Shown: piece by piece, positions 7,014 through 56,410 of the stretch
Position numbering within the stretch: the stretch's first letter is position 1
Layout of the letters: each line of letters opens with the position of its first letter
Assembly (NCBI GenBank): GCA_028285595.1
Contig: JANQOW010000066.1
Span: 350-64,349 of the forward strand
DNA from: Hyphomicrobiales bacterium
GTDB lineage: Bacteria > Pseudomonadota > Alphaproteobacteria > Rhizobiales > CAJQND01
Length of the DNA stretch: 64,000 nucleotides
Direction: 5' to 3'
Notes under the pieces: model-generated
Seen by the model: the letters and a program-made list of their open reading frames with translations, nothing else
The model's database searches: none
Told to the model about the DNA's origin: nothing
Position numbers and translations under genes: made by a program

Positions 7014-7019
7014 ACGATC

Positions 7020-7316
7020 ATGGCCGAGCCTGACAGCGTCCTAGATGGCCGAGGCTCCCGGATCGCAGCCGGGCTTCTGTGCGCCGTTTGCATCGGCCTG
7101 ATCGTCTTCCTCAATTGGCACGTGATGTTTCCCCCGCCGGTCAAGAAAGGCGAGGACGATGCCAAGCTGAACCCGGAGTATGTCGCCTGCCGCGACGCGC
7201 GCCTGGTGACGGTTCAGAAGATGAAGGATGATGGCGTCATCAACGAGGCGCAGTTTACGCAGTTCTCTGCCCGCGCGGAGGAAACCTGCGCCGGCCAGTT
7301 TCCACCTGGCGGCTAG
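7020..7316 (+). CDS. small single-pass membrane protein, hypothetical
   Basis: 98 aa. TM helix AAGLLCAVCIGLIVFLNW. Starts 6 nt after the upstream stop. Its TAG stop shares the tetranucleotide CTAG with the stop of the convergent NRPS-like gene. Confidence 0.45.
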   Translation: MAEPDSVLDGRGSRIAAGLLCAVCIGLIVFLNWHVMFPPPVKKGEDDAKLNPEYVACRDARLVTVQKMKDDGVINEAQFTQFSARAEETCAGQFPPGG

Positions 7317-10024
7317 CGACTCTCTTCCAAAGCCGATCTGACCAGATCCGCAAGCACGGCGAGATATCTCCCGCGGGTCATGGAGAAGTGTGATCCGGGA
7401 ACCCAATGGGTCCGAACCTGGCGCGCCAAGGCGGCCCAGCCCAGGGTGTCCTCGGCGAACCCTTGTGTTTCTGCCGAAGCCTGCTGGGCCCGGAACAAGT
7501 TGAGACGACCGCCATAGCCTTCAGGCAGGTAGGCCCGGCGGGCTTTGTCGTGGAGGCCGGTGAGCTGGATTGAGCGCCGAATTCCAGGCTGACGCATCAT
7601 CAAAAGACGCGAATTGCGGTCCACCGCCGAGGCCAGGCCGGACGCTTTGTGGAATGTGCGAAACATCGCATTGGTCCAAAGAGCGCTAAGCGTGGCCCCC
7701 CCCTCGCCTTTTGCTCGCTGGTAGCGCGCTTCGGCGCCGAACAAGACATAGAGCCCGTCCAGCGCCATGGGCCCGGCTTGGGTGAGAATCTGACCGAAAA
7801 ACCGCAGTTCACGCCAGGTGTTCTTGAGCGCCGGCAAGACACCCCGCCCCGTGCTGGATCGCGGCGGTGTGGGGGTATCGATCAGACCGAGGAACGAAAC
7901 AGCCTGTCCCTCGCGCTCAAGCTGCACGGCCATCTCATAGGCGAGCAAGCCGCCAAAGGAATGGCCACACAGCCGGTAGGGACCCAGGGGCTGCACAGTG
8001 CGGATTTGCTCGATCAAACTTACGGCCATGGCGGGCACCGTGCGTTGTGGCTCGGTGGCAAGGTCGCAAGCAGGGTCCTGCACGGCAAACACCGGAAAGT
8101 CGCCGCCCACGGCCTGGCCCAGCTCAAACACGGTGAACGCGAGACCTCCCGCACCATGGATTAAGAAGAGCGGCGGACCGTTGCCATCGGTCCGCAGGCT
8201 GACCAGCGCCGTTGACGGGCGAAAGGCCCTGGCTTCATTTATGGAGCGCGCCAGCGCTTCAACTGTAGGCTCCTCCAAAAAGCTGTTCAGCTCGATTTTC
8301 GCATCCAAGGTGGTCTCCAAAGCCAGGAGAAACTCCACCGTCATTAAGCTGTCACCGCCCAGATCAAAGAAGCTGTCGCATATCCCCACTGGCTTGACCT
8401 TCAACGCTTCGGCCATGAGCGTGGCCAGCCGCAACTCCAGCGCATCACGCGGCGCGATGTACGCCGTGGCAAGGTCCGGCCGAATGCTCTCCGGCGCAGG
8501 AAGCGCGTTACGGTCGATTTTGCCGGACGGGGTCAACGGCAGATCGCTCACCTCAACAAACTGCGCCGGACACATGGCGGCCGGCAGATGGGTCCTGGCG
8601 AGCTGCTGCAGCGCCGACGTTAGGGTTTCATCACCACCTCTCCCCGCGGCGGGCACAATGTAGGCCACCAAGCGCTTGGTCTCCTCATCGCCCTTCAGCG
8701 CCACGATCGCTTCACGCACGCCGGCATGGCGCAGCAGGACCGCCTCGATTTCAGCCGGTTCAATCCGCACGCTGTTGATCTTGATCTGATTGTCGATGCG
8801 CCCGTGGAAGCTGAGTTGACCATCGGTCCTGACCGCCACCCGGTCACCGGTCCGATAAGCTGTGCCTTGCGGCAGTTGCACGAAGCGCTCCGCCGTTAAG
8901 GCAGGCTGAGCCACATATCCCCGAGACAGCGTCGGACCCAGGAGCCAGAGTTCTCCCACGTCTCCATGGTTCACCGGCTTTCGGGCGTCATCCAAGATCA
9001 GCGTTTCGAAATGGGCAAGCGGCTTGCCAATGGGGATGCTGCCCTGCTCGACATCATCATCGGTAATCTCGCCCGCCGTTGCCCACAAGGTGGTCTCCGT
9101 CGGCCCATAGAGGTTCCAAACGCTCTTGGCACGCGCTTTCAGCTCGCCCGCCATGCGCGGACTGATCGCCTCAGCGCCGGTCAAAAGGGTCAACGCCGCA
9201 TCGCCTTGCCAGCCGGCCGCGAGCAGCAATCGCCAGGTTGCCGGTGTGGCTTGCAAAAGACTTGGCTGCTCAGCCTCAATGCGGCTTATCAGGCGACGCC
9301 CGTCGCGCGCTTCGCCGGCGGTGGCAAGCACCACGGTTCCCCCGGCCTGGAACGTTAAGAACAGATCGAGCAACGAGATATCAAAGCTCGGCGAACTGAC
9401 CGACAAAACGGACGCTAGCGCCTCGCTGGGCAAGACCGCAGCCATGGAGGTCAGGTAGGTGATCAGGGCCTTGTGATGGATTTGGATCCCTTTGGGCCGA
9501 CCGGTGGAGCCTGAGGTGTAGATGATATAGGCAAGATCATCGCCCTGTGCGCGCCACTTTGGAGAGCCTGAACTGCGCTCAGGTGGAGCTCCCTCGTTCG
9601 CCCCCACATACACGGTCGCTGCCCGGCAATTGAGGGCCAATGGATCTGTGTCCCGGGCCACCAGCAAGAGCTTGATCCCCACCTCATCGGCCATAGCGCG
9701 GAGCCGGGCTTTGGGATAGGCCGGATCCAAGGGCAGCCAGGCGCCGCCGGCCAGGGTGACCGCGAGGATCGCAATGACGCACTCAGCAGAGCGCCCCAAG
9801 TAGATCCCGCACACATCCCCTGCCTGGAGCCCCGCCCCATGCAGTTCCGCCGCCAGAGCACGGGCCCTGAGATCGAGCTCATCGTAGGAATACGTGGTCT
9901 CTTTGACCTTGATCGCCGTTCGGGTCCTGAACGCGGCGTGAGCCGTTGTCCAGAGTGCACCGAGAGTATCACCGGCCGTGGTCTCATCCAGGGTGAAAGG
10001 CAGAGAAGCAGCAAACGTCGCCAT
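7313..10024 (-). CDS. single-module NRPS-like enzyme: adenylation - peptidyl carrier - thioesterase (A-T-TE), no condensation domain
   Basis: A-domain motifs YIIYTSGSTGRPKG, YRTGD, GRIDNQIKINSVRIEPAEIE and PLTPSGKIDR. Carrier motif FFDLGGDSLM. Thioesterase GHSFGGLLAYEMA. ATG 10024 is chosen over GTG 10060, so the start is uncertain. Confidence 0.85.
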   Translation of the reverse strand: MATFAASLPFTLDETTAGDTLGALWTTAHAAFRTRTAIKVKETTYSYDELDLRARALAAELHGAGLQAGDVCGIYLGRSAECVIAILAVTLAGGAWLPLDPAYPKARLRAMADEVGIKLLLVARDTDPLALNCRAATVYVGANEGAPPERSSGSPKWRAQGDDLAYIIYTSGSTGRPKGIQIHHKALITYLTSMAAVLPSEALASVLSVSSPSFDISLLDLFLTFQAGGTVVLATAGEARDGRRLISRIEAEQPSLLQATPATWRLLLAAGWQGDAALTLLTGAEAISPRMAGELKARAKSVWNLYGPTETTLWATAGEITDDDVEQGSIPIGKPLAHFETLILDDARKPVNHGDVGELWLLGPTLSRGYVAQPALTAERFVQLPQGTAYRTGDRVAVRTDGQLSFHGRIDNQIKINSVRIEPAEIEAVLLRHAGVREAIVALKGDEETKRLVAYIVPAAGRGGDETLTSALQQLARTHLPAAMCPAQFVEVSDLPLTPSGKIDRNALPAPESIRPDLATAYIAPRDALELRLATLMAEALKVKPVGICDSFFDLGGDSLMTVEFLLALETTLDAKIELNSFLEEPTVEALARSINEARAFRPSTALVSLRTDGNGPPLFLIHGAGGLAFTVFELGQAVGGDFPVFAVQDPACDLATEPQRTVPAMAVSLIEQIRTVQPLGPYRLCGHSFGGLLAYEMAVQLEREGQAVSFLGLIDTPTPPRSSTGRGVLPALKNTWRELRFFGQILTQAGPMALDGLYVLFGAEARYQRAKGEGGATLSALWTNAMFRTFHKASGLASAVDRNSRLLMMRQPGIRRSIQLTGLHDKARRAYLPEGYGGRLNLFRAQQASAETQGFAEDTLGWAALARQVRTHWVPGSHFSMTRGRYLAVLADLVRSALEESR

Positions 10025-10146
10025 GGGCTCAAGTCTTAGATAGTCAAACCAGCCGCCCACGCTAACGCATCAGCGCGCACACGTGCGCACACGAAGTTTA
10101 ATGTTTTCGTGAGGCGCGAGTGCGCGCGACTTGAGACCGTTTCAAG

Positions 10147-10965
10147 TCAGGTCCCGGTCTTGACCGCCTTCCAATACTGCTGATTGAGGTAGTCGACCAG
10201 GCCGTCATGCTTCTCCTGAAGGCACTTCTTCAGGCTAATCCTGCGATTCACACTGGTGACATAGCGGCACAGCTCAAGCGCGCCACGCGCTTTATCGCGG
10301 GCTTCCGGCGTAAGCGGCTTTCCGGGTGCGGCGGCCGCGGTTGTGGCGCGGCGCCACATGGGCTCCACCTGATTTCGCTTGCTGCCACGATCGGGCAACA
10401 GATTGATCATGCGAGATGTGATGCGGGCAGCCTGCATGCGCGAAGAGTTGCTGTCCACGATCTGGCTCCCAAGCTTGCGCAAGGGCCCGGTGAAGAGATC
10501 AGCTTCAGCCTTCCCGATGGCGGTAGGATCCGCGCGGGTGGGCAGAGGCAGAAGCGCCGCATGGGCGGCCACGTGGACCGAAACATGAGTCAGGCCGTAA
10601 GACTTCAGCTTGGCCCGGTCAATGCTGACACGCACCGCCAAATGGCGCCGCTGGGAGACGAAGCGCGCAACTTGGCCGGCATCCAGTGAAATGCTCCGCC
10701 CGTCCGGCGTGGTCCCCACCAGTTGCACCAGACCTTCGGTGGCCAACTCATACTCGGTGCCCTTTGGCGGCGAGATGCGACTGGAATCAAGACAGAACGA
10801 TGTGAGTTCGGCGCTGCAGGTCGCACCGGCGCAGGCCAGATCGATGGTACCGCCGGTTTCCACCAACGCCAACGCCTGCGGTGCCGCAGCCGCCCCCGGT
10901 GCCCCCGCCACAAGGCCCGACAAGACTAATCCGGTGATCGCAAAGCAATGTTGGATGGACTTCAT
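10147..10965 (-). CDS. secreted hypothetical protein (272 aa)
   Basis: ATG 10965 is preceded by GAGGAGG. Signal peptide MKSIQHCFAITGLVLSGLVAGAPGAAAA. The upstream part of the track ORF (to 11241) has no coding character. Confidence 0.55.
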   Translation of the reverse strand: MKSIQHCFAITGLVLSGLVAGAPGAAAAPQALALVETGGTIDLACAGATCSAELTSFCLDSSRISPPKGTEYELATEGLVQLVGTTPDGRSISLDAGQVARFVSQRRHLAVRVSIDRAKLKSYGLTHVSVHVAAHAALLPLPTRADPTAIGKAEADLFTGPLRKLGSQIVDSNSSRMQAARITSRMINLLPDRGSKRNQVEPMWRRATTAAAAPGKPLTPEARDKARGALELCRYVTSVNRRISLKKCLQEKHDGLVDYLNQQYWKAVKTGT

Positions 10966-24968: not shown

Positions 24969-25439
24969 TCACCGGGTGAGAGCTTTCTGCTGCGGCACCC
25001 AAACCGGTTCGAACGCGCCCTTCCAAAAGCCGCGTTTGGCCGCCTTGGCTCCGTTCATCTGGCCCCAATACCGCTGCGGCGCTCCGGCCTGCGGCACTGC
25101 CCAGCCGGTGTAGATCATGTTCTCCGCCAGATCGAAGCCTCCCGACGTACAGTGTGCAAACCCATCTGCGCCCAGCGTGCATCTGATGGCCGCGCCGGCG
25201 GAGAGGTCCATCAGAGAGGCGCGTGAGATCACACCGCAATCGCGCAGCTTGCCCCCCAGTTGGCAAGTGGTGCCTAAAGGCGGTGCGGAGATGTGGCGCA
25301 ACACAACGCGCGTCGACCCGAGCACAATCGTCATCCCATCTTCGACCGTGTATTCGCCCGATGCGGCCTTGATGGGGTCTGCCATCGCAGGCGCGGCCAT
25401 GAGGGCAACAGCCGCAATAAGAGGACTGAAGGATTTCAT
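24969..25439 (-). CDS. secreted thermonuclease (SNase)-like family protein
   Basis: Signal peptide MKSFSPLIAAVALMAAPAMA. SNase-like layout (VVLRHISAPP...C...AENMIYTGWA...AKAAKRGFW). Confidence 0.55.
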   Translation of the reverse strand: MKSFSPLIAAVALMAAPAMADPIKAASGEYTVEDGMTIVLGSTRVVLRHISAPPLGTTCQLGGKLRDCGVISRASLMDLSAGAAIRCTLGADGFAHCTSGGFDLAENMIYTGWAVPQAGAPQRYWGQMNGAKAAKRGFWKGAFEPVWVPQQKALTR

Positions 25440-25518: not shown

Positions 25519-27594
25519 CTACTTCCGCACTTCTTCGGGCAGGAACAGCATGAAGTCGTTGGCCTCACCGCCCACATGGCAGTCGTGACAGAACTTCAGA
25601 CCCGCTGAGTTCTTGCCACCAGTCAGGCCAAACAGCTTGCCGCCCGGCATCACCATGGCATAGCGCCAGTTCGATGTTTCCGCGTTGAAGCCTCTGACCA
25701 TCTTCTCCATGATGAACAAGGGTCCGAGGGCCACTTTGCCATCGGGCTGGACGACGAAACTGGGTTTCGCCACCGTTGTTCCAATCGGCATCTTGCTGTC
25801 TTGCGCGTCATACTTGGTGTAGGCGCTGAGACCGACCTTGTTCACATGATTGGTCACGAACCGGCCACCATGAGTATCGGAGCGGTAGCCATGCTTGGAG
25901 ACCGTGTTGAAGCGCTTCCAGCGTGCTGTCGCCCAGTGGCCGGACTTGCCGTACGACTTGATCTGCGCCTTGCGGACACAGTCAGCCAGAGCGGCCAGTT
26001 CAGCAGCACTCACGTCAACCGCCGGTGCAGCACCGCAGGCCCCGCACGCTGCAGCGCAGGGATTGCACGCACCGCAGGCTTTCTTAGCCGCACAGGGATT
26101 GCAGGCACCGCAAGCGGCCTTGCACGGATTGCACTTCTTGGCGGCGCAGGGATTGCACGCACCGCAAGGATTGCACTTCTTGGCCGCGCACGGGTTGCAC
26201 GCGCCGCAAGCGGCCTTGCACGGATTGCAGGCACCGCAGGCGGACACCTTCTTAACCGCACAGGGGTTGCAGGCAATGCGCGGAACCACGCATTCCGTCA
26301 GAGCCGCTGCCGAAGCCGCGCCGCAAGGATTGCACGGATTGCAAGCACCGCATGCGCCACACGCCGCTTTACAGGGATTGCAAGCTGCGCAAGGGTTACA
26401 CTTCTTAGCCGCGCACGGGTTGCACGGGTTGCATGCGCCGCAAGCCGCCTTACACGGATTGCACTTCTTGGCAGCGCAAGGGTTGCACGCCGCACAGGCC
26501 GCTTTGCAAGGATTGCACTTGGCCGCTGCACAGGGATTGCAAGCCGCTTTGCACGGATTACACTTAGCTGCTGCACAAGGGTTGCAAGCTGCTTTGCACG
26601 GGTTGCACTTGGCTGCCGCGCAAGGATTGCAGGCCGCTTTACACGGGTTGCACTTGGCTGCCGCGCAAGGGTTGCAGGCCGCTTTGCAAGGATTGCACTT
26701 GGCCGCTGCACAGGGATTGCACGCCGCGCAAGCCGCTTTGCACGGATTGCACTTAGCAGCCGCGCAAGGGTTGCAGGACACGCGCACGCGCTTCACGGCA
26801 AAGCCGTTGCCCTGCTCCAGCGAAGAGCTCTTGCAAGGATTACACTTCTTGGCTTTGCAAGGATTGCACCCGCCACACTTTGCAGCGCAGGGGTTACATT
26901 TCTTGGCCGCACAAGGGTTGCACGCACCGCAAGCCGCTTTGCACGGGTTGCACTTAGCAGCCGCGCAAGGGTTGCAAGAGGTGCGCACGCGCTTCACGGC
27001 AAAGCCGTTGCCTTGCTCCAGCGAAGAGCTCTTGCACGGATTGCACTTCTTAGCCTTGCAAGGATTGCAACCGCCGCACTTTGCAGCGCACGGGTTACAT
27101 TTCTTGGCTGCACAAGGGTTACACGCACCGCAGGCCGCTTTGCACGGATTGCATTTCGCTGCCGCACATGGGTTGCAGGACACGCGCACGCGCTTCACGG
27201 CAAAGCCGTTGCCTTGCTCCAGCGATGAGCTCTTGCAAGGGTTACACTTCTTGGCTTTGCAAGGATTGCAAGCGCCGCAGGCGGCACCGCATGCTGCGCC
27301 GCACGGGTTACACTTCTTGGCAGCGCACGGGCTACATGCGCTTGCCGCACAGGGATTACATTTCTTAGCCGCAGAACAGGGGTTACAGGCGGCGACCCGA
27401 ATGCGCTTCTGCGCCGTCGGATTGCCCGGCTGTCCCGCACGCTTCTGGGCCACCGGGTTTTCACCCGAACGGTTGACAGCAGCCGGATTAGCCTTGCTGG
27501 CATTTGCCGGTCCGGAGACAGACAAGCCAATTGCAACGCCCAAGGCCACTGGCACAACGGCCACAGACGAGAGCAGTTCGTTTTTGCTGATCAT
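25519..27594 (-). CDS. secreted cysteine-repeat (about 45 x CNPC) protein with C-terminal cytochrome P460/c'-beta-like haem domain
   Basis: ATG 27594 preceded by GGGAGGA. Signal-peptide-like MISKNELLSSVAVVPVALGVAIGLSVSGPANA. Residues about 78-529 (track numbering) consist almost only of C/N/P/A/K/G. The C-terminal about 160 aa carry NWRYAMV...FCHDCH...DFMLFLP, the only CXXCH in the protein. Confidence 0.85.
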   Translation of the reverse strand: MISKNELLSSVAVVPVALGVAIGLSVSGPANASKANPAAVNRSGENPVAQKRAGQPGNPTAQKRIRVAACNPCSAAKKCNPCAASACSPCAAKKCNPCGAACGAACGACNPCKAKKCNPCKSSSLEQGNGFAVKRVRVSCNPCAAAKCNPCKAACGACNPCAAKKCNPCAAKCGGCNPCKAKKCNPCKSSSLEQGNGFAVKRVRTSCNPCAAAKCNPCKAACGACNPCAAKKCNPCAAKCGGCNPCKAKKCNPCKSSSLEQGNGFAVKRVRVSCNPCAAAKCNPCKAACAACNPCAAAKCNPCKAACNPCAAAKCNPCKAACNPCAAAKCNPCKAACNPCAAAKCNPCKAACNPCAAAKCNPCKAACAACNPCAAKKCNPCKAACGACNPCNPCAAKKCNPCAACNPCKAACGACGACNPCNPCGAASAAALTECVVPRIACNPCAVKKVSACGACNPCKAACGACNPCAAKKCNPCGACNPCAAKKCNPCKAACGACNPCAAKKACGACNPCAAACGACGAAPAVDVSAAELAALADCVRKAQIKSYGKSGHWATARWKRFNTVSKHGYRSDTHGGRFVTNHVNKVGLSAYTKYDAQDSKMPIGTTVAKPSFVVQPDGKVALGPLFIMEKMVRGFNAETSNWRYAMVMPGGKLFGLTGGKNSAGLKFCHDCHVGGEANDFMLFLPEEVRK
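26497..26721 (-). repeat. in-frame 45-bp tandem repeat x5 (15-aa unit CNPCAAAKCNPCKAA)
   Basis: Units start at 26497, 26542, 26587, 26632 and 26677. The first and last units are nearly identical; the middle units differ at synonymous sites. Confidence 0.85.
26700..27260 (-). repeat. in-frame 201-bp tandem repeat, about 2.7 copies (67-aa unit containing KSSSLEQGNGFAVKRVR plus six CNPC motifs)
   Basis: The phase marker GGTTGCA(G/A)GA recurs at 26769, 26970 and 27171. Two full units differ at 21 of 201 nt by hand alignment but at only one amino acid. Confidence 0.85.
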
Positions 27595-27795
27595 TAGGTT
27601 CCTCCCGAAAATGATCAATTGAGGTCAGTGTGCGAATGCACAAAGGAAAGTCGGTCAGGATGCGGACTATATGTACGCCGGACAACAGAGACGGCCTTCC
27701 GACGGACAACCTATCAAAGCCGTCGCGCACGTGTTTTCACATGAGGAGTTCAGTGGTTCACTAAAGCGTGAGGATTATAAACCGTCCGTAAACGG

Positions 27796-28659
27796 CTATT
27801 CGCGCACCAAACGGAAGCCAACCAAAATGTGCTTAATCGCCTTCGGCCGCCCGTGACGTGCGGCCGGGCGGCAGACGCCGCAGCCGCTGTCATCCCACGA
27901 TCCACCCTTGACCCGGAAGCGGTCTTTGCCCGTCGGCGTCGACGTCCATTCAAACACCTGACCCGCCGCATCCAGCAGACCGAAGGGGCTGGCACCCTTT
28001 GGAAACTTGCCCACGTTCACGGTGTCAAACGGACCCTTATCGTGACTGTTGAGCAGCTTGGCATCATAGGTGTTGCCCCAGGGGAAGTAGCGGCCATCGG
28101 TGCCGCGCGCGGCCTTCTCCCACTCCTTCTCCGTGGGCAGGCGCCACTTATGGCCGGTTTGTTTGGAGAGCCAGGCCGCGTAAGCCTGAACATCGTCGTG
28201 GGACACCATCACCACGGGATGTTCGGCGCGGCCTTCCGGGTAGGTGCCCTTTGACCAGGCGTGGCGCAGCGCCCGCTCATAGGGGTGAATGAGCTTGTAG
28301 GACGCCCAAACGCGCGGCTTCACCCGAGGGATCCGGTGGCCCGTGGCTTTCGTGAAGGCCCGATACTGAGCGTTCGTAATCGCCGACTTGGAAATGGCGA
28401 AGGCCGGCAGACTGATTGTCCGCCGCTTGTCCTCAAAGTCGTACCAGCGCTGCTTGCGGGTCACCGAATGGCCATAGGCTTTCTCGTCCAACCTGTAGGC
28501 AGCCTCACGTTCAGCTTGATCGGATCCGGTGATGAACGCGCCGGCAGGGATGGAGATCACCTCAGGCACCAGCTCTGGGGCGAGGGTGTCGGCACCCGCG
28601 TTGACCGCCAGCCAAATGAGGAGGGCAATGTTCACGGTTATAGATGAAATCAACCGCAC
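27796..28659 (-). CDS. secreted formylglycine-generating-enzyme (FGE/SUMF1/EgtB/PvdO) family protein
   Basis: Signal peptide MRLISSITVNIALLIWLAVNAGA. FGE-sulfatase-fold motifs (IPAGAFITGS, ITNAQYRAFTKATGH, HPVVMVSHDDVQAYAAWL, VFEWTS, VKGGSWDDSGCGVCRPAARHG, VGFRLV). Confidence 0.8.
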   Translation of the reverse strand: MRLISSITVNIALLIWLAVNAGADTLAPELVPEVISIPAGAFITGSDQAEREAAYRLDEKAYGHSVTRKQRWYDFEDKRRTISLPAFAISKSAITNAQYRAFTKATGHRIPRVKPRVWASYKLIHPYERALRHAWSKGTYPEGRAEHPVVMVSHDDVQAYAAWLSKQTGHKWRLPTEKEWEKAARGTDGRYFPWGNTYDAKLLNSHDKGPFDTVNVGKFPKGASPFGLLDAAGQVFEWTSTPTGKDRFRVKGGSWDDSGCGVCRPAARHGRPKAIKHILVGFRLVRE

Positions 28660-28680
28660 CAGATCAGCCGGCCCGGCGCA

Positions 28681-29400
28681 TCAAGCCGCCTTGCCGTGCG
28701 ACAGGATTGCCTGGCGCACCGCGGATATCTGCTTGGGCACATCGATCGACGTCTCCGACGTCACTTCAAGGTCGCGGTCTTCATAGACGTCACGGTCCGG
28801 GTGTTTCTCCTGCCACTCGGCCATCACTTGGTCGCGCTCGCGAATCAGCGCCTCGATCTGCGGGCGGAACAACACCATCATCGAGGAGACCCAGCGGTTG
28901 GTGGCAAGACAGGGATAGGTGTGGTCCATCTTGAACTTGCCAAGCAGTTCGATCGTGTCCTCTGCGGAGTAGTAGCTCTCATCGGTCACCCACCTGTTGG
29001 TGGTGAACAGACCAATGGGCTTGCCCGGCGCGTTCATGGAAATCGCTACGAAGTGGCACAGCGCATCCTTGCCCAGAGGCCGCTCCCCCTCGCCCTCATA
29101 GGGTGCCGGCTGGATACGCTTGGGCATGGCCTTGGCGCGCAGGAACGTATGGAAGTGGCCGTGCTCCTCGTCCCGGTGGGCATGGTAGTAATATTGTGAG
29201 CCATACTGGTCGTCGTAAATGTCGCCCGACGGATAATGGTCGAACTCATAAAACGTGCCCTGATTGGCAAGGCACTGCCCCACCACATTCGCGTTGGTCT
29301 TGCCTAAGAGGCGGTAGCATTCCTCAATCTCCGAACCGGCAGCGGCCATTTCTTCCAGCTGCTCACGAGGCAAATCGCTGAGTTTCACTTTAAGGCTCAT
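28681..29400 (-). CDS. His-rich hypothetical protein (239 aa, no signal peptide)
   Basis: ATG 29400 (MSLKVKLSDLPREQLEEM). Motif FDHYPSGDIYDD..GSQYYYHAHRDEEHGHFHTF suggests a metal site. Its stop is 21 nt from the FGE-like start. Family not recognised. Confidence 0.55.
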   Translation of the reverse strand: MSLKVKLSDLPREQLEEMAAAGSEIEECYRLLGKTNANVVGQCLANQGTFYEFDHYPSGDIYDDQYGSQYYYHAHRDEEHGHFHTFLRAKAMPKRIQPAPYEGEGERPLGKDALCHFVAISMNAPGKPIGLFTTNRWVTDESYYSAEDTIELLGKFKMDHTYPCLATNRWVSSMMVLFRPQIEALIRERDQVMAEWQEKHPDRDVYEDRDLEVTSETSIDVPKQISAVRQAILSHGKAA

Positions 29401-29633
29401 TTTGAGTTTAGGCGTCTTATACGTTGGATTTGCGGACCAATTTACTCCGCCGTGTGCGGACGAACAGCCCCTAGCGATCATATAACGCACAAACTTGCGT
29501 GATCGGCCCCCATGTTTTCGCCATTTTTGGCACAAATGTAGGGAAAACGACTGGCCGTTATGGTTAATAATAGCTTAACAAAAAAGTGGCACCACAGCGG
29601 CAAGGACGGTGGATTGGGAGGAAGGTCAAGCAA

Positions 29634-31280
29634 ATGATAGACAAACCGGTTGGACGCCCGCTTCGAACACTGGCCGCCACTTTGGCGCTGGCAACGCTGA
29701 CAGGTCTCGGCGCCTCCCCGGCGGTCGCGCAAAAGGGCGACAGCTTCTCCACCCGCAATGAAGTTTCTGCTCAGGTGGCCACCATCCTCAATTCTGAGGG
29801 CCGGCTGCCCATGCCCGTTCAAATCGTGCGCCCTGCCCTTACCAAGCACTACGTGGACAATGAGGGGCGTCTGTTCTGGGTCGGCTCGCCGCGGATGGAC
29901 CAGTTGATCGAGCGCCTGTCGAACGCCGCGCGCGACGGCCTCTTCACGCGGGATTACCCGATCGAATATCTCACCACACTCAAAGACAGCCTGCAGGCCG
30001 GCGAAGCGTTCACGGAAGCCTATGCGGAACTCGCCTTCAGTGCGTTCTTTCTGAAATATGCGTCCGATCTGAAAATCGGACGCTTTGTGCCGCGCAAGAT
30101 CGACCCTGAACTGTTTGTCTCCCGTAAGAAGCTGGACCTGGTGCCGGTTCTCGCCAAGCTCAACACCTATCCGTCGCTTGATGCCTTCTTCACCGATTGG
30201 GAACCCCAGAACTCTGAATATCGCACCTTGCGCAACGCGCTGCGCCAATACCAAGCCATCGTGGCTAAGGGTGGCTGGCAGGCGGTGGACCCCGGCGAGA
30301 CCTTAAAGCCCGGCATGATCGACCCACGGGTGGCGCAGGTGCGCGCGCGTCTGATGGCCTCTGGCGACCTCACCCAATCGGCAGATGATCCCAACCTCTA
30401 TGATGAGGGTCTGGAGATTGCCGTGCGCCAGTTCCAAACCGAACATGGGCTGGACAGCGACGGCGTTGTCGGCAAACAGAGCATCTTTGCCATGAACGTT
30501 TCGGCCGAAGAGCGGGTGCGCCAGATCATCGTAAACCTGGAGCGCTGGCGCTGGTTGCCGGAAGACTTGGGCGACCGCCACATTCTGGTGAACGTGGCCA
30601 GCTTTGAGCTGCGCCGCGTGGAGTATGGTTCGCTGCAGGAAGTCATTCGTGTTGTGGTGGGCAAACCCGGCACGCGCACGCCCGTGTTCTCCAACAAGAT
30701 CCGCTATCTGGAGCTGAACCCCACCTGGACCGTGCCGCGCTCCATTGCCACAAAAGAGATGCTGCCGAAGCTGCAAGCCAATCCTGGCTATCTCGGCAAC
30801 AATTTTGAGCTGCTCCAGGGCGGTCAGTCCATTCCGTTCGGGGCGGTCGACTGGGCCTCTGTCACGCGGTCCAACTTCGCGTACACCATTCGCCAGAAAC
30901 CAGGTCCGAAGAACGCGCTGGGCCGGGTCAAGTTCATGTTCCCCAACAAGCATGCGATCTATCTGCATGACACCCCGTCACGCAGCCTGTTCGGCCGCAC
31001 CACACGGGCCTTCTCGCACGGCTGCATCCGTGTCGGCCGCCCGCTCCATCTGGCCAATCAACTGCTTCAGGAGGCGCCGGGTAAATGGTCATTGAAGAAG
31101 ATCCAGACGGTTCTGGACTCTGCCAAGATCACTCGGGTCAATCTGCCCGAGCCCTTGCCGGTGCACCTCACCTATTCCACAGTGTTCCGTGGCCTCAACG
31201 GCGCCATCAACTTTCGGCCGGACATTTATGGCCGCGATAAACGGCTCTATCGTGCCCTCTTTGGCAAACATACCCCCTGA
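29634..31280 (+). CDS. L,D-transpeptidase family protein (YcbB-like: PG-binding domain + YkuD catalytic domain)
   Basis: ATG 29634. Signal peptide LRTLAATLALATLTGLGASPAVA. PG_binding_1-like LEIAVRQFQTEHGLDSDGVVG. Catalytic HDTP...SHGCIRV motif. Confidence 0.85.
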   Translation: MIDKPVGRPLRTLAATLALATLTGLGASPAVAQKGDSFSTRNEVSAQVATILNSEGRLPMPVQIVRPALTKHYVDNEGRLFWVGSPRMDQLIERLSNAARDGLFTRDYPIEYLTTLKDSLQAGEAFTEAYAELAFSAFFLKYASDLKIGRFVPRKIDPELFVSRKKLDLVPVLAKLNTYPSLDAFFTDWEPQNSEYRTLRNALRQYQAIVAKGGWQAVDPGETLKPGMIDPRVAQVRARLMASGDLTQSADDPNLYDEGLEIAVRQFQTEHGLDSDGVVGKQSIFAMNVSAEERVRQIIVNLERWRWLPEDLGDRHILVNVASFELRRVEYGSLQEVIRVVVGKPGTRTPVFSNKIRYLELNPTWTVPRSIATKEMLPKLQANPGYLGNNFELLQGGQSIPFGAVDWASVTRSNFAYTIRQKPGPKNALGRVKFMFPNKHAIYLHDTPSRSLFGRTTRAFSHGCIRVGRPLHLANQLLQEAPGKWSLKKIQTVLDSAKITRVNLPEPLPVHLTYSTVFRGLNGAINFRPDIYGRDKRLYRALFGKHTP

Positions 31281-31318: not shown

Positions 31319-32104
31319 TCAGCCGAACTGCTGATGGGCTCTCAGCTCGGACGAAGCTGGAACGAAAAGGCAATCAATCTGCCACAGCGCGCCATCCAGT
31401 GGCCGCCGGTGAAATTCGAGAATATCGTATAGTACAAAGCCTCGTTCTGACATGAACTCGATCATTTCATGGAAGATTGGCGCGCCTTTGTTCACGGCGA
31501 TCAATGAGAGCTCAAGCACAACAGCATTGACGCTTGATAGAACGTCTTGAGCCCCCTTCAGAACTTCAAGCTCATATCCTTGAACATCAATCTTCAGGAT
31601 ATCTACCGTCCGTCCGCCAACGAGTTTATCAAGGGCTTGCAAGGTTCGGTGTTCAATTTCCCTGTCGATAGCGCTTTGTTCAGCGTACACAGATGATCCG
31701 GTTTCCATCACGTGAAAATCAACGGCCTCGCCCGACTGCGCTCCCAGAAGCTCGCAAGCAACATCTCCATTGATTTCCTTGGCCACCTTTTCGAGGATCG
31801 GCAGTTTACTCTCATTAGGCTCAATCATGAGGACTGTGGCGGACGGCCATATGCCGTGGATCATCCGCGCCCAATCGCCCTCATAAGCCCCCACATCAAC
31901 CACAAACTCAGGAGAAAAGTTCAATTTGGCCAACGCGCTCAGGGCCTGCGCTTGGTCAGGCGCATTGGCGCGGCGGTGCGCTTCTAACAGAAATTGTTCC
32001 TCTGCCAGGGCGATACCAAGTTTAAGAATGAACTTTCGGATCGAAAATGGAAGTAAAGTGGTTAGCACCCTCACCAGTGTCGTTTTTAAGTTCTGGCTCG
32101 GCAT
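31319..32104 (-). CDS. FkbM-family SAM-dependent methyltransferase
   Basis: VVDVGAYEGDW ... ILKIDVQGYELEVLKG pattern of Methyltransf_21/FkbM. Lower GC than flanking genes. Confidence 0.7.
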   Translation of the reverse strand: MPSQNLKTTLVRVLTTLLPFSIRKFILKLGIALAEEQFLLEAHRRANAPDQAQALSALAKLNFSPEFVVDVGAYEGDWARMIHGIWPSATVLMIEPNESKLPILEKVAKEINGDVACELLGAQSGEAVDFHVMETGSSVYAEQSAIDREIEHRTLQALDKLVGGRTVDILKIDVQGYELEVLKGAQDVLSSVNAVVLELSLIAVNKGAPIFHEMIEFMSERGFVLYDILEFHRRPLDGALWQIDCLFVPASSELRAHQQFG

Positions 32105-32426: not shown

Positions 32427-33197
32427 CTAGGCTTTACCGAGCTTCCGCTTGCGCCGCCAGCCCATGAGGCCCATCAGTCCAAGACCACCCGCCAAGAGCG
32501 GCAGAGCGGCCGGGACCGGAACTTCAGGCACATTGTTGCCGGGATCTGTGAAGTCCACCGTGATGGATTTCAACTTCCATTTGTCGTTGCCGTCGAAAGC
32601 GCCGAACATGTACATAGCGCTTTGAACGGTTCCGAAATTCGTGAACGGGTTATCGTCTTGCCTGAAGCTCAGATAGTCGTCCGTTCCGTAAGTCCCGTCG
32701 TCGTTGGCATCGAAGCCCCAACGGAAGTCGTCGCCGTTAGAAGGGTTGAACAACCCAAAAGACACCGATGACATTCCCACGTCTATATCATTGCCGTTGA
32801 AGGTGAAGGCAGCGGTGATGAAGTTGTCCCAGCCGTTACCGTCAACCTGATGATTATCGCCAGGACGTGTTGTAACGCCGGCACCGCCAACGTAACGCCC
32901 GATCCGAATATCACTGGCAGGGTTTAAAGTTTGGTTCGGTCCACCAATGGTGTAACCGTTAGGAATTGGATCAATGTTCCTATTGCCGCCGGTGGCATCC
33001 AAACTATTTGTGAACGCTCCAGCGGTGAACGTACCAGTAAGCCCGCCCACCGTCAGCGAGAACGATTGTGACAGTGAGTTATAGTTCGTCGAATCTTGTT
33101 GGCCTGGTGGTACCGAGAGATCGAAAGTGATAGGCACTGCGCCTACAGCACCAGCAGTCAGCACCAGAAAGGCGCCACTTAACACCATACTTTTCAT
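32427..33197 (-). CDS. secreted protein with C-terminal VPLPA-CTERM-type exosortase sorting signal
   Basis: Signal peptide MKSMVLSGAFLVLTAGAVGA. The C-terminus VPVPAALPLLAGGLGLMGLMGWRRKRK reads as motif, then TM helix, then a basic cluster. Confidence 0.8.
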   Translation of the reverse strand: MKSMVLSGAFLVLTAGAVGAVPITFDLSVPPGQQDSTNYNSLSQSFSLTVGGLTGTFTAGAFTNSLDATGGNRNIDPIPNGYTIGGPNQTLNPASDIRIGRYVGGAGVTTRPGDNHQVDGNGWDNFITAAFTFNGNDIDVGMSSVSFGLFNPSNGDDFRWGFDANDDGTYGTDDYLSFRQDDNPFTNFGTVQSAMYMFGAFDGNDKWKLKSITVDFTDPGNNVPEVPVPAALPLLAGGLGLMGLMGWRRKRKLGKA

Positions 33198-45545: not shown

Positions 45546-46520
45546 TCAGGCAGCCACCAGATCCATGGCCTGAGCAGCCTCTTCCAGCACCGAGACCGTT
45601 GCCCCGTCCCGGTGCATGTGCTGAGACAAGTAACGGCGCCAATGCCGTGCGCCAGGCTCTCCCTGGAACAGGCCGAGCAGATGTCGGGCGATGTGATGCA
45701 GCCGGGCACCGGCTGCCACCTGGGCATCCACATAAGGCAAGAAACGCTCCAGTGCTTCGCGTCGCGCGGTGACTTGGGGCGTGTCTCCAAACACGCGTCT
45801 GTCTACATCCGCGAGAAGCCACGGGGTCTGGTAGGCCGCCCGTCCGACCATCACCCCGTCCACGACATCAAGCTGATCAAGCGTCTCATCAAGGCTCACA
45901 ATCCCACCATTAATGGCAATCTGTAGATCAGGCCGGCGGGCCTTCAGCCGGTGGACACGGGCGTAGTTGAGCGGCGGTATATCCCGGTTCTCCTTGGGGC
46001 TCAGCCCCTGGAGCCAAGCCTTGCGGGCATGCACGATAAAGGTGGAGCAGCCCGCCTCAGACACGGTGTCGATAAAGGTGTTGAAGTCTTCTTCTTCGTC
46101 CTGATCGTCGATCCCGATCCGGCATTTCACCGTGACCGGGACGGTTACTTTTGACAGCATCTCCGACACGCAGGCCCCCACCAGCTCCGGCTCTGCCATG
46201 AGGCAGGCCCCGAAGCGGCCCGATTGAACCCGGTCCGACGGACAGCCGACGTTTAGGTTGATCTCATCATATCCCCAGTCTGCCCCGATCTTTGCCGCCT
46301 CGGCACACTCTCCAGGCTCCGAACCGCCGATCTGAAGGGCAACGGGATGTTCGGCGGGCGCGAAGTCCAACAACCTGTCTCTGGGGCCGTGCAGGAGCGC
46401 GCCTGTTGTCACCATCTCGGTGTAGAGCAAGGCACGGCGCGTCAAGACGCGGTGGAACGCCCGGCAGTGCCGGTCGGTCCAATCCATCATGGGCGCGATG
46501 GAAAAGGCATGGGCCTGCAT
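45546..46520 (-). CDS. dusA: tRNA-dihydrouridine(20/20a) synthase
   Basis: FSIAPMMDWTDRHCR, EINLNVGCPS and VTVKCRIG motifs plus the DusA-type C-terminal helical domain. ATG 46520 is preferred. Confidence 0.85.
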   Translation of the reverse strand: MQAHAFSIAPMMDWTDRHCRAFHRVLTRRALLYTEMVTTGALLHGPRDRLLDFAPAEHPVALQIGGSEPGECAEAAKIGADWGYDEINLNVGCPSDRVQSGRFGACLMAEPELVGACVSEMLSKVTVPVTVKCRIGIDDQDEEEDFNTFIDTVSEAGCSTFIVHARKAWLQGLSPKENRDIPPLNYARVHRLKARRPDLQIAINGGIVSLDETLDQLDVVDGVMVGRAAYQTPWLLADVDRRVFGDTPQVTARREALERFLPYVDAQVAAGARLHHIARHLLGLFQGEPGARHWRRYLSQHMHRDGATVSVLEEAAQAMDLVAA

Positions 46521-46788
46521 GTGAGAGCAACGAGATTTTACCATACCGTCAAAGGCCTGAATTGAGCGCACGCAGTCTTTTGATCTTGCTATGCCGCGAT
46601 CGAATATCGTGGTTCGGAACGTCGTTGCTCGCGCTTATAGCAGATATTGTTTTGAAGCTGGCAAACTGTGATTATTCTTCAAGGCGGCCGGTGGCGCCGT
46701 AAGCATTCTGCCGTTCCAGCCAAAAATCCGCTATGCTATGCCACCATGAACGGCAGACTAGACCGACGGAATGAGAGCACTTTTATAG

Positions 46789-48939
46789 ATGATCCATCGC
46801 AATTCGTGCCGAATATCGGAAGTTGTATGTCCACATAGCTTCCGTAGCGCCGTTAAATTGAGCTGCACCAAACTGGTAATTTGGTGTGTGCTGGTGTTGC
46901 TTGCAGGCGCACAAACCCCGGCCAGCGCGGCGGCTAAAGACGAGGAACCGTCGTTAAATCTGTTCCGGATGCCAGAATACGCAGTTCAACAGGCTAACTT
47001 GGCGCGCCGTTTGGGGCCACTTTTTCGACAGGGAAAGTTTGCCGAAGCTGAGAAAGCTCTCCGGAACATTCTGGCAAGTCATCCGTATTGGCCGGTTCAT
47101 CATTACATGCTTGGCGCGGCGCTGGCCCATCAAGGAAAGATTGAAGGGGCGTTTGAAAGTCTCGAATCCGCGAAAACTCTTGGTTTCTCGAATGCTGCGA
47201 TGTTGCAACGAGATAGTAGTTTTCTCTTGCTGAGAGGCCATCAAAGGTTCCGAGAGCTGTTGGCAGAGATTGCAGATCCAAACAGACCAGTGCCCGATGC
47301 CTTTCAAAAGAACAAGATCCCAGGGAAAGTCTCGGGGGGACGTGCCCTTGTTGAGAGTTCGAACACTGTCTGGGACCCACGCAACAATCTGCTTCTATCG
47401 GCTTTTCAGTTTCCTAACTCCGAGAAACCTGAAACTGTCTACACCGGCTCCAATCCAGAGCTGAAACTCCTGAACCAATTGTACAAGGAGGGAAAGTCAG
47501 CTGGGAATTACGGGGATCTGTACGACAATCGAGACAATGACCATTCCTCGCTCTCGCAGAAAACGTTTCAGCAGCTTACACACGTTGAATATAGCAAGCC
47601 GGCGAAAGCCGTGCGGCGCCACTACGGCTTAAACTCGAACCAGATGTTTAACGCCATCACAATTGGAAACTCTTCCACTGCCGTAACCGGACAGTATTGG
47701 AGGAGCCAAGCAAGATTGATGCTATCGTCGCCAACTCTGGCCGCCCACGCCTATCGTCAGTATGCGAACAATCAACTTTACGTCTATCCAGAACACCAGG
47801 ATCACGACCCAGAGCGCGGAGATCTGTTCCCGGTGAACACGCCCTATTTGTTGATATCGCAAGGCTCGTCAGGTTCTGATCAACCTTTCTTGCAAGCGCT
47901 TGCTGCGATACTTGCAGCACTTCCGCCTGATGTGAAGCCATGGTTGAGACAGCGAAGGTTAGTTGCGCCAACTCTTCAATGGATATTCAGAAAAGGATTG
48001 AAAACCGTCCGGTCAACAGGTGATTACTTAAGCGCAAGGGCGCATCCCACGGTCTTCGATGCCAACGAAATAGATTTAGGTCGCATGATCGAATTTGCCA
48101 GCAATCTGCGCTCAGATGTGGTGCCGCCCAGTGTCCAGCTACGCGTTCAGTCGGAGAGCACACCAACTCCCGGGCTGAACTATTTTGGCCCTTCGAGACG
48201 AGACGAAGTCTTGTTCAATACCCCCAGCGCAATTGCGCGAATACACAGATCAACGACTCAGGAACGAGTGATGATCGTAAGCGCGGAAGCGACTCAAGAT
48301 CCAAATGGGAGGGCGCTCAAATATTCATGGAAACTGCTACGCGGTGACCCGGACAAGGTCTCAATCACGCCACTAGGGAACAGTGGGGCGAAAGCCGAAA
48401 TCCGTATCAAGTGGCACGCTCAAAATCTGGTGCCATTTCGCGGAGAGCTCAGAACACACAGAGTAGATATTGGCGTATTCGCTCACAATGGTGTCAATTA
48501 CTCGAGCCCCGCATTCGTCACCGTTTACAACGCGCCTAATCAGTTTCGCAGATACGACGATGAGGGCCGAGTTATGCAAATTACGTATGACGCCGCCCTG
48601 CTCTCAGACCGGTACGTGGACCCAACGTTGTTCGCCAGTCGAAATTGGCAAGATCACTACAGCTACACAGAACAAAACGAGTTGATCGGATGGCAGCGTA
48701 AGTCTGATGAAGGTACTCAGACGTTTACGCGCCATGGGGCGCGGGCCGTCGCATTTGACGGAGCCGGCAGACCGATTAGGGCTGAACTCATCACGTATCG
48801 CAGAACAAGCATCGCAAATGCAAAAGGGATTGTCCAAATGGTTCCGCAAAACCGATTTGTTCACTATCGTTATAGGGATGCGTCGGATCGCCTTGGAGTC
48901 GCAACCTTCTGTGGTCAACCCATTTGCAACCATCACTAA
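46789..48939 (+). CDS. large secreted hypothetical protein with N-terminal TPR-like repeat region
   Basis: 716 aa. Signal-like LVIWCVLVLLAGAQTPASA. TPR-like AEKALRNILASHPYWPVHHYMLGAALAHQGKIEGAFESL. The remainder is unrecognised. Start uncertain. Confidence 0.55.
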   Translation: MIHRNSCRISEVVCPHSFRSAVKLSCTKLVIWCVLVLLAGAQTPASAAAKDEEPSLNLFRMPEYAVQQANLARRLGPLFRQGKFAEAEKALRNILASHPYWPVHHYMLGAALAHQGKIEGAFESLESAKTLGFSNAAMLQRDSSFLLLRGHQRFRELLAEIADPNRPVPDAFQKNKIPGKVSGGRALVESSNTVWDPRNNLLLSAFQFPNSEKPETVYTGSNPELKLLNQLYKEGKSAGNYGDLYDNRDNDHSSLSQKTFQQLTHVEYSKPAKAVRRHYGLNSNQMFNAITIGNSSTAVTGQYWRSQARLMLSSPTLAAHAYRQYANNQLYVYPEHQDHDPERGDLFPVNTPYLLISQGSSGSDQPFLQALAAILAALPPDVKPWLRQRRLVAPTLQWIFRKGLKTVRSTGDYLSARAHPTVFDANEIDLGRMIEFASNLRSDVVPPSVQLRVQSESTPTPGLNYFGPSRRDEVLFNTPSAIARIHRSTTQERVMIVSAEATQDPNGRALKYSWKLLRGDPDKVSITPLGNSGAKAEIRIKWHAQNLVPFRGELRTHRVDIGVFAHNGVNYSSPAFVTVYNAPNQFRRYDDEGRVMQITYDAALLSDRYVDPTLFASRNWQDHYSYTEQNELIGWQRKSDEGTQTFTRHGARAVAFDGAGRPIRAELITYRRTSIANAKGIVQMVPQNRFVHYRYRDASDRLGVATFCGQPICNHH

Positions 48940-49373
48940 ACCTGCTGATCGCTCCATTCAGACGTCATGCCTGCGGGCGCGCAATTGCGAACCGGAGATG
49001 TATAGGCACCGATCCGCTCACACATGAACCCAAAGAGAGCAACACAAGCTCGGCCTAAACTATATGACAAAGCATTCGCGCTTAGTCGCGGCTTCGGCGA
49101 TCGCAAACATTTTAATTGGACAGATGTTTGATAACATTGGCAAAGTCTACTAAGACTCGCCAAGAAACAATTGGGGAGCATTCACCTCTAAAGTGGGAGC
49201 CAGGTTCGAAATTTATTGCCACAGGTAGGACTGCCCGCTCGTGCATCAATGAATCATAGGCCCCGCCGAAGACTTCTTTGCCCAAAATCTCGCAACGGTC
49301 AGAATGCTGCGGACCAAGTTTAATCCGTGTACAACCATTGCCGAGATGCTGAAAACAGATGATTGGAAGTAAG

Positions 49374-50330: not shown

Positions 50331-50367
50331 GTCTGCGATTATGTGGATGGGACCATTTCGGCTGGCC

Positions 50368-53748: not shown

Positions 53749-53938
53749 TGCTCTCGTCGCGAGTGTGATTGGACATGCTGATTGACCGCGCGCTTCCGGT
53801 GAACCCTGGCTGCAGATTATGTGTCTTCACGGCTACCTCCAGGCAAGGGCCAGTGCGCCGGGTCCATCCGCAGCGCCAGGCTCCCTTCAGACAGTATTCC
53901 AGCGAACAAATGGTCCACCAAAATCATGAGAGACAGCT

Positions 53939-56390: not shown

Positions 56391-56410
56391 TGCGCGGCGC
56401 CCCCGGAGCA

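Follow-up and report, generated by a model that had tools for sequence, protein, structure and literature searches.

A conserved gene set of DUF6969, NPC-repeat and FGE-fold proteins in a Hyphomicrobiales genome and other Proteobacteria

The formylglycine-generating enzymes (FGE; SUMF1) are aerobic, copper-dependent proteins, and their fold is also found in ToxD, CalU17, PvdO and EgtB and in many orphan paralogues. In human FGE the Cu(I)-binding cysteine pair, Cys336 and Cys341, lies in GGSYMCHRSYCYRYR, and Cys341 is the residue that engages the substrate. Here, we will examine a locus in a 64,000-nucleotide stretch of a Hyphomicrobiales bacterium (contig JANQOW010000066.1 of assembly GCA_028285595.1; hereafter the window), where a gene for an FGE-fold protein stands between one for a His-rich protein of the family DUF6969 and one for a Cys-repeat protein with a P460-like haem domain at its C-terminus. 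For the regulation of such a locus, the relevant precedent is the inverted repeat AGTCAC-N6-GTGACT, on which activation of the S. meliloti srlA promoter by CenK/CenR depends and to which purified CenR binds (PMC9561847, PMC11328730).

The three genes belong to a gene set that is conserved in many Proteobacteria and has gone undescribed; our searches for literature on DUF6969, on these repeats, on CNPC, or on P460 in combination with formylglycine/FGE or cysteine-rich found none. A broader search on FGE paralogues and copper gave nothing of relevance, and one on NirV, a comparison that was dropped, yielded a T6SS-immunity preprint and a kinase survey. That the three are functionally linked is very probable. 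The core of the set is DUF6969 together with an NPC repeat, and the FGE-like gene is an accessory, the least constant of the three, which occurs in roughly half of the loci. An earlier sequence-only reading had described three minus-strand genes, separated by 21 and 201 nucleotides (nt), and had proposed that the FGE-like enzyme modifies the cysteines of its CNPC-rich neighbour; the genes, the gaps and the motifs that it quoted are all where it placed them.

Conservation of the gene set

Gene neighbourhoods were collected from three seeds, namely the FGE-like protein, DUF6969 (one genome per species) and the P460 domain (metagenomes). With the FGE-like protein as the seed, a DUF6969 gene adjoins in 8/8 contexts and a P460 or NPC gene in at least 7/8, with the gene order rearranged. 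FGE-like relatives at 79-85% identity share the order seen in the window, and those at 64-69% have the same genes in other orders, the P460 gene being sometimes divergent from the FGE-DUF6969 pair. One alternative order in distant relatives runs DUF6969, small NPC peptide, FGE, NPC-P460 and SNase-like.

The genome scan with DUF6969 returned at least 586 relatives, with cultured carriers such as Denitrobaculum tricleocarpae R148, Pelagibius sp., Aestuariispira insulae and Hyphomicrobium sp. NDB2Meth4 among them, and 80 loci were fetched, 62 of which have an NPC-repeat open reading frame (ORF). Full flanks, that is, at least 5 kb on both sides of the seed, are available for 47 of the 80. Among these 47, an NPC gene is present in 38 (81%) and an FGE gene in 22; 18 loci have both, 20 have NPC without FGE, four have FGE without NPC and five have neither. 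The distance to DUF6969 is at most 2.7 kb for the NPC genes and at most 1.4 kb for the FGE genes. Starting from the P460 domain, nearly all members of the subfamily (41-96% identity) have an NPC-rich N-terminus, and the 16 full-flank metagenome loci include 13 with DUF6969 and 11 with FGE. Over the three seeds the linkage extends to more than 100 loci, including Alpha-, Beta- and Gammaproteobacterial ones, in shuffled order. Co-occurrence of the trio across genomes, which the sequence-only reading had named as a check, is thus found in both directions, with the gene order shuffled between lineages.

It is the repeats, and not P460, that the linkage concerns. The neighbours of DUF6969 include secreted NPC peptides that stand alone, with about 100 amino acids (aa; L014, L048), and NPCAAK-type repeats joined to a cytochrome c domain of the SoxA/TsdA type (PF21342, E 2.4e-10; Table 1), and no P460 domain is present in 9/38 NPC-positive full-flank loci. 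The repeat itself takes the forms CNPCAAKK, NPCAAK and (NPC)n, with a different CxACDAC repeat in L065 and L068. Since the conserved core is NPC, with NPCAAK and (NPC)n among its variants, C-x-P-x-(K/A) is not the defining motif. The median CNPC fraction of the repeats is 0.93 where an FGE gene is present (n=30) versus 0.73 where it is not (n=20; one-sided Mann-Whitney p = 0.005, kinship ignored), and all three loci with zero CNPC are also without FGE.

An exception to the module is locus L131, in which a tandem pair of P460-like genes (5258-6130 and 6347-7501), one repeat-free and one with (NPC)n, adjoins suf/iscR-like genes, with no DUF6969 or FGE gene within 7 kb.

The three proteins and the element upstream of their genes

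The three minus-strand ORFs of the locus were confirmed, and their coordinates are given in Table 1. The 239-aa DUF6969 product is 100% identical to the publicly called protein P0121. The public assembly of the same sequence starts the FGE-like gene eight codons later (GTG 28635, 279 aa), which is why an exact look-up of the 287-aa product found no public match. The labels given in public annotations are 'formylglycine-generating enzyme family protein' and 'hypothetical protein'. The CNPC gene likely starts at ATG 27594, with GGAGG ahead of the start codon. The gap between the DUF6969 and FGE-like genes covers 28660-28680.

Pfam places residues 31-286 of the FGE-like protein in FGE-sulfatase (PF03781, E 2.1e-43), and its AlphaFold model has the FGE fold with a predicted local distance difference test (pLDDT) value of 89. 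The top Foldseek match to this model is ToxD (7spq, E 6.9e-19, 30% identity), followed by CalU17, EgtB, pFGE and PvdO, and the true FGEs come lower (E about 1e-14, template modelling (TM) score about 0.6, 25% identity). The same five outrank the true FGEs in phmmer, where ToxD scores E 7e-28, and the NCBIfam scores fall far under all equivalog cut-offs. A 496-aa FGE homologue, P0015, looked at first like an informative fusion, but is merely a tandem of two FGE domains.

One might expect the two cysteines of the CGVC motif, C260 and C263, to be the copper-binding pair of FGE, as the sequence-only reading suggested. They do lie in the corresponding loop, and neither varies across the 120 closest homologues (57-90% identity), where the surrounding motif reads VKGGSWDDxGCGxCRPAAxHxRP...KHILxGFRL; residue for residue, however, the match fails. 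When the family profile is aligned with human FGE using hhalign (a short alignment of 45 columns, anchored on GGSW and AAR...GFR), C260 falls on Cys341, C263 falls on Tyr344, and human Cys336 lies in a two-residue deletion. The C-terminal sequence of human FGE had been confirmed against PDB chains before the alignment was made. Of the two catalytic cysteines only Cys341 has an equivalent, then, and the Cu(I)-binding pair as such is not matched. ToxD has no Cys at the position of CGxC in the sequence alignment.

With no Cys336 equivalent, a CxxC in the catalytic loop and low NCBIfam scores, the protein therefore represents a distinct FGE-fold subfamily and not a canonical FGE. Judged by these comparisons, it appears not to be a classical formylglycine generator and to stand nearer to ToxD and CalU17 than to true FGE. 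The long ORFs of the window contain neither a sulfatase signature nor C[STACG]P[STAG]R. The N-terminus, MRLISSITVNIALLIWLAVNAGA followed by DT, and a modelled helix at residues 2-20 fit the signal peptide that had been predicted earlier; the mature protein has an isoelectric point (pI) of 9.8, and both the FGE-like and the repeat proteins look secreted.

The DUF6969 assignment is strong (PF22308, E 1.1e-80), with residues 65-264 of the long ORF covering positions 2-201 of the 201 in the model. The family comprises 4661 protein clusters, and each of the 120 best homologues listed has a single domain, a length of about 240 aa and either no name or the label 'hypothetical'. The protein is His-rich and acidic (pI 5.3) and, because no N-terminal hydrophobic segment is seen in the sequence, is presumably cytoplasmic. 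Although its AlphaFold model is of good quality (pLDDT 89.4, predicted TM score 0.90), Foldseek found no match to this fold in the PDB (best E 0.85, TM at most 0.19) and a profile search against PDB sequences gave 0 matches; therefore, no function can be transferred to it. Residues H55, D60, D63, H73, H75, E79, H80, H82 and H84, among others, are invariant in 48 homologues. In the model, H73 and H75 lie on one strand (68-74) and H82 and H84 on the next (81-88). With HxH motifs on two neighbouring predicted beta-strands, the His-rich motif is a candidate metal site, and it is reasonable to suppose that the cluster binds metal.

The CNPC-repeat protein has 45 CNPC motifs and 111 Cys among its 691 aa, 16% of the protein being Cys in CxxC units. 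The motif had been likened to the CxPxR target of FGE. It is followed by A (21 times), K (18), G (3), N (2) or S (1) and by R in 0/45 cases, and the likeness does not extend to the Arg. The tandem duplications in the repeat DNA are recent, and the repeat copy number differs between close relatives, whose proteins have 691, 645 and 555 aa.

Pfam and NCBIfam searches with the whole CNPC protein gave no match, because the repeats mask the haem domain. When the C-terminal 167 residues are isolated, they match PF16694 with E 8.9e-5 and 23.3 bits, which is under the gathering threshold of 27, and a profile of 14 haem-domain sequences finds 7s5o (E 5.4e-4), 7ead (5.6e-3) and the N. europaea P460 2je2 (0.83) in the PDB. 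The CxxCH is invariant (C143, C146 and H147 in the family alignment). In 2je2 and 8gar the residue opposite the invariant Lys of VAKPSF, in an alignment of weak significance, is the K of TVTVKEL, which in N. europaea P460 forms the cross-link to the haem; c'-beta-type chains carry F (7ead) or M (7s5o) instead.

Gene callers deserve caution here. Long spurious ORFs cover the repeats in the window, several 'unannotated' or antisense-called ORFs in the FGE-seeded loci are CNPC repeats in another frame, and NPC-repeat proteins are hidden from annotation because such antisense or frameshifted ORFs get called. Examples of this choice in other assemblies are L008 9036-9803 and L007 7188-7523.

Between close relatives, the 201-nt gap ahead of the CNPC gene shows 83% conservation. 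In agreement with the earlier view that it holds no convincing terminator, a consensus scan found no terminator-like site in it, though the scan is weak (5 sites in 5 kb versus 5.5 expected); one site was reported at the DUF6969/FGE junction (28680 to 28655). A weak hairpin of 4-5 bp with a T-run directly after the FGE stop codon might be taken for a terminator, but some relatives have it (L010, L091) and others do not, so that it is not a conserved one. Rfam found no known RNA family in 27300-29800, and a sigma-70 promoter scan of the window between 25 and 30 kb gave 0 sites, a result that is uninformative for an alphaproteobacterial promoter.

What the gap does contain is the sole exact copy in the window of the palindrome TCAC-N6-GTGA. 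There are 87 copies in the 1.84 Mb of fetched loci, about 75 of them upstream of NPC, FGE or DUF6969 genes. The 260 nt ahead of NPC-repeat ORFs hold 53 of the copies, a density of 1.23 versus 0.047 per kb overall (26-fold), and about 22 of the remaining 33 stand 20-200 nt upstream of FGE-like or DUF6969 genes, NPC-less loci included. The arms are conserved and the spacer is variable, as in a protein-binding site. Between DUF6969 and FGE the window has 21 nt and no box, and close relatives have about 98 nt with a box. The flanks here read CCTCAC...GTGAAC; the outer AG/CT of the CenR repeat differ and the core is identical.

With this box upstream of all three gene types, they look like one regulon and are apparently co-regulated. 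Because the operator-like box lies within the 201-nt gap, the CNPC gene probably has its own regulated promoter and would not be expressed by simple read-through. DUF6969 itself was provisionally set aside as a less likely candidate for the factor that binds the box, in view of its pI of 5.3, a model in which no helix-turn-helix is evident, and the match of the box to the CenR site.

Table 1. Features of the locus and of related loci (positions refer to the window unless a locus is named)
Feature	Location	Coordinates	Strand	Remarks
DUF6969 protein gene	window	28681..29400	-	239 aa from ATG 29400; ORF extends to 29535
His-rich motif YYHAHRDEEHGHFHTF, DUF6969 residues 71-86	window	29143..29190	-	translation
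Secreted FGE-fold protein gene	window	27796..28659	-	GTG start, 287 aa; alternative GTG 28635 gives 279 aa
CGVC motif (C260, C263)	window	27871..27882	-	loop corresponding to FGE catalytic Cys loop
Intergenic region, FGE-like stop codon to CNPC start codon	window	27595..27795	-	201 nt
Palindrome TCAC-N6-GTGA, candidate operator	window	27758..27771	.	sole exact copy in window; inside 201-nt gap
Secreted CNPC-repeat/P460-like gene	window	25519..27594	-	691 aa; ORF reaches 27618 (TTG)
CNPC repeat region	window	26056..27387	-	residues 70-513
Tandem duplication in repeat DNA	window	26705-27279	-	201 nt x 2.9 copies
Tandem duplication in repeat DNA	window	26498-26727	-	45 nt x 5.1 copies
VAKPSF, invariant Lys	window	25756..25773	-	profile alignments with weak E-values; placement tentative
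CHDCH, c-type haem-binding motif of P460-like domain	window	25576..25590	-	translation
Spurious long ORFs over repeats	window	25801-27622	+	475 and 575 aa
Spurious long ORFs over repeats	window	26010-27557	-	other frames
SNase-like secreted protein, recurrent accessory	window	24969..25439	-	156 aa; directly downstream of CNPC gene
YkuD L,D-transpeptidase	window	29586-31280	+	Scaffold, PG_binding_1 and YkuD domains; divergent from DUF6969
Secreted protein with PEP-CTERM-like tail (VPEVPVPAALPLLAGGLGLMGLMGWRRKRK)	window	32427-33197	-	256 aa
NPC-SoxA/TsdA fusion	L087	9157-9918		also in L056, L066
NPC-SoxA/TsdA fusion	L055	10835-11575		
Secreted accessory of about 150 aa	L015	10866-11348		
Secreted accessory of about 150 aa	L012	853-1311		
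Secreted accessory of about 150 aa	L076	11009-11473		

Several other genes recur around the module. Homologues of the SNase-like protein are found downstream of the P460 gene in 13/80 DUF6969-seeded loci; the L031 homologue matches Pfam SNase (PF00565, E 2.2e-6), and the copy in the window has no Pfam match. A secreted protein of about 150 aa, with three invariant Cys and the motifs VSGGGL and SCPLNxTP, recurs in 14 loci outside the window. It was considered as a cupredoxin and rejected, with Cupredoxin_1 as the best Pfam match at E 0.012 and no PDB match. At L059, DUF6969 (10001-10690) is divergent from a minus-strand, bufferin-like operon (6083-9464) of MNIO (MbnB/TglH, E 1.7e-89), DUF2063, thioredoxin and DsbD_TM; at L058 a YHS-like protein precedes FGE and DUF6969, and at L170 a rhodanese follows DUF6969.

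The YkuD neighbour recurs at 18 DUF6969 loci, one of which (L019) lacks both FGE and NPC; its presence may reflect lineage synteny or an envelope link. Glutamine-synthetase-like (Gln-synt_C) genes occur within about 10 kb of the module in several lineages (L001, L002, L007, L008, L019 and L171), accompanied in several of these six loci by a 2OG-Fe(II) oxygenase gene. Further along the window, the PEP-CTERM-like gene adjoins a gene at 31319-32104 whose homologue in L089 is annotated Methyltransf_21, and the final 18 kb (46000-64000) have a G+C content of 0.51-0.55, down from about 0.60, and may be an acquired region.

Explanations for the linkage

The explanation that we prefer, tentatively and at somewhat less than even chances, is that the FGE-like protein is an accessory periplasmic enzyme for thiols or Cu-thiolates that acts on the CNPC units, with DUF6969 as the obligatory partner of the repeats. 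The three genes would then form one conserved, co-regulated cell-envelope module. Its core would be a Sec-exported (C)NPC-repeat protein paired with a cytoplasmic His-rich DUF6969 protein, the repeats in this window being fused to what is probably a P460-type haem domain with Lys at the cross-link position. The FGE-fold accessory would join the FGE scaffold to a Cys341-aligned Cys within the invariant CGxC. Plausibly, it would act in the periplasm on the C-N-P-C thiols, by oxidising them, by forming mixed disulfides or by handling Cu(I)-thiolates; it would not serve sulfatases and would probably not make formylglycine. Expression would be from separate promoters with a common TCAC-N6-GTGA operator of the CenR type, one of them in the 201-nt gap upstream of the CNPC gene.

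Several observations weigh against this explanation and should be kept in mind. The FGE-like gene is missing within 10 kb from 20/38 NPC-positive full-flank loci and is therefore dispensable there, or encoded elsewhere in those genomes, and the FGE-less loci include some with CNPC-type repeats (L046-L049, L061); Hoeflea and Rhizobiaceae belong to this FGE-less group. Conversely, four full-flank loci, for example, in Sneathiella, have FGE and DUF6969 with no NPC gene within 10 kb. The correlation between CNPC and FGE was computed without phylogenetic correction. In the protein itself, the Cys336 equivalent is absent by hhalign and the Cys loop is modelled less confidently (pLDDT 65 for residues 251-260). 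The closest characterised relatives, ToxD, CalU17, EgtB and PvdO, act on small molecules. The pairing of FGE-like enzyme and CNPC protein that the sequence-only reading proposed thus holds in that the genes are functionally linked, and gives way in that the constant partner of the repeats is DUF6969.

Rather unlikely, though the most serious of the alternatives, is parallel action, in which DUF6969 and the FGE-like protein act on a small molecule or metal ion and the NPC-haem protein is a co-regulated neighbour within a CenR-type envelope-stress regulon. The small-molecule paralogues are indeed the best matches in sequence and structure, there are FGE-DUF6969 pairs with no NPC gene within 10 kb and DUF6969-NPC pairs with no FGE, the shared box could explain the clustering as co-regulation, and some neighbours hint at metal or thiol stress (MNIO/DUF2063/thioredoxin/DsbD in L059, YHS-like in L058, rhodanese in L170). 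Such a scheme has to contend, however, with the fact that in 81% of full-flank loci an NPC gene stays no more than 2.7 kb from DUF6969 despite the shuffling of gene order, with the correlation between FGE presence and the C-x-P form of the repeat, and with an invariant CGxC in the catalytic-cysteine loop of FGE.

Action on the CNPC thiols may also be extended into a broader proposal, which in its entirety is unlikely: a new post-translational system of the envelope, in which exported (C)NPC repeats (free, or fused to P460 or SoxA/TsdA) would be serviced by DUF6969 and by an FGE-fold CxxC enzyme re-targeted from CxPxR to CNPC, to give a thiol-rich redox- or metal-buffering haem protein under envelope-stress control of the CenR type. 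As part of the same proposal, DUF6969 would be a metalloprotein of the cytoplasm whose fold the PDB does not contain, and the FGE-fold enzyme would be periplasmic and possibly copper-dependent.

A third possibility, distinctly unlikely, is that the NPC repeats are a metallothionein-like periplasmic sponge for Cu(I) or another thiophilic metal, which the CGxC and the DUF6969 histidines bind or deliver while the haem domain supplies or removes electrons. The density of Cys in CxxC units would suit this role, as would the invariant HxH and HxH on adjacent strands of DUF6969, the metal-related neighbours in L058 and L059, the weakly cupredoxin-like accessory in 14 loci and the description of true FGE, in PDB titles, as a Cu(I) bis-thiolate enzyme. 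However, the clusters have no recurrent gene for a metal regulator, efflux pump or chaperone, the cupredoxin and YHS matches are sub-threshold, and periplasmic CxxC units may be plain disulfides.

We consider it very unlikely that the protein is a true FGE which turns the first Cys of C-N-P-C-(K/A) into formylglycine. This is the strongest form of the sequence-only reading, and the FGE fold, the C-x-P core in the repeat, the one catalytic Cys equivalent and the synteny can be cited for it, but the present comparisons lend it no support: no residue takes the place of Cys336, the two cysteines are spaced as CxxC and not as CxxxxC, Arg stands at +4 in 0/45 motifs, the protein is no closer to true FGEs than to paralogues, with true FGEs ranking under five other paralogue classes, and the FGE-like gene is absent from half of the NPC loci.

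More improbable still is a role for the FGE-like protein, DUF6969 or both in maturing the P460 cofactor, for example, in forming a Lys-haem cross-link, and not in acting on the repeats. The trio was first seen as FGE, DUF6969 and P460, and an invariant Lys stands at the cross-link position, but DUF6969, with or without FGE, is also found beside P460-less NPC peptides and NPC-SoxA/TsdA fusions, and the P460 paralogues of L131, repeat-free and repeat-bearing, have neither accessory within 7 kb. That the genes are chance neighbours with no functional relation is barely credible, and is effectively refuted by the synteny data, with the same neighbourhood emerging from three independent seeds and more than 100 loci in rearranged order, and with a common cis element besides.

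DUF6969 has 4661 protein clusters and relatives in at least 586 of the scanned genome stretches, yet no literature and no relative of known structure. The NPC-repeat haem proteins, which gene callers often get wrong, are no better described, and both families are tied to a distinct subfamily of a fold that is rich in orphan paralogues. If the FGE-like protein does act on CNPC thiols, it would be a peptide-directed FGE-fold enzyme outside sulfatase maturation and would provide a system with a defined substrate in which to follow the re-targeting of the FGE scaffold. Metal or redox buffering under CenR would amount to a widespread periplasmic defence in marine and sediment Proteobacteria, and CenR control would supply a conserved target set for the poorly defined CenR regulon.

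Comparison with known systems

With aerobic Cu-dependent FGE (SUMF1; PDB 1y1e, 5ssz, 6s07, 2q17 and 6muj), the FGE-like protein shares the fold, the GGSW...RxAAR...GFR framework and the C341-aligned Cys; like FGE, it also appears from its sequence to have its catalytic domain outside the cytoplasm, and its putative partner has a C-x-P motif. The two differ in that the cysteine pair is CxxC here and CxxxxC in FGE, the partner motif has no Arg, and there is no sulfatase in the window. The best matches are the small-molecule FGE-fold paralogues ToxD (7spq), CalU17 (6vqp), PvdO (5hha), EgtB (4x8b) and OvsA, of which PvdO is also periplasmic. ToxD, however, does not have the CGxC, and no pairing with a Cys-repeat protein or DUF6969 is known for any of these paralogues.

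The C-terminal 165 or so residues of the CNPC protein share with the cytochromes P460/c'-beta (PF16694; 2je2, 8gar, 7s5o and 7ead) a CxxCH near the C-terminus, a beta-rich core and the Lys position. Unlike the matched PDB chains of this family, which have 135-196 residues, the CNPC protein carries a 450-residue N-terminal Cys-repeat extension, and unlike known P460 it is genetically tied to DUF6969 and FGE.

By analogy, the logic of the module may resemble that of bufferin-type metallophores, which are ribosomally synthesised and post-translationally modified peptides (RiPPs) associated with MNIO/DUF692 and DUF2063: a Cys-rich product with a Sec signal is encoded beside a cytoplasmic protein with candidate metal ligands. 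Some NPC precursors, as in L014 and L048, are only about 100 aa long, most are large haem-protein fusions, and DUF6969 has no detectable relation to MNIO. Neither MNIO (DUF692, PF05114) nor DUF2063 is among the neighbouring genes of the window, and L059 is the only DUF6969 locus that has them alongside.

The last comparison is with the CenK-CenR regulon. The AG/CT that flank the S. meliloti srlA site are not conserved here, and some of the loci carry Beta- or Gammaproteobacteria labels as metagenome-assembled genomes. The core of the box is identical, and its centre stands about 170 nt from the ATG in the window versus about 141 nt at srlA, whose product is a thioredoxin-fold stress protein.

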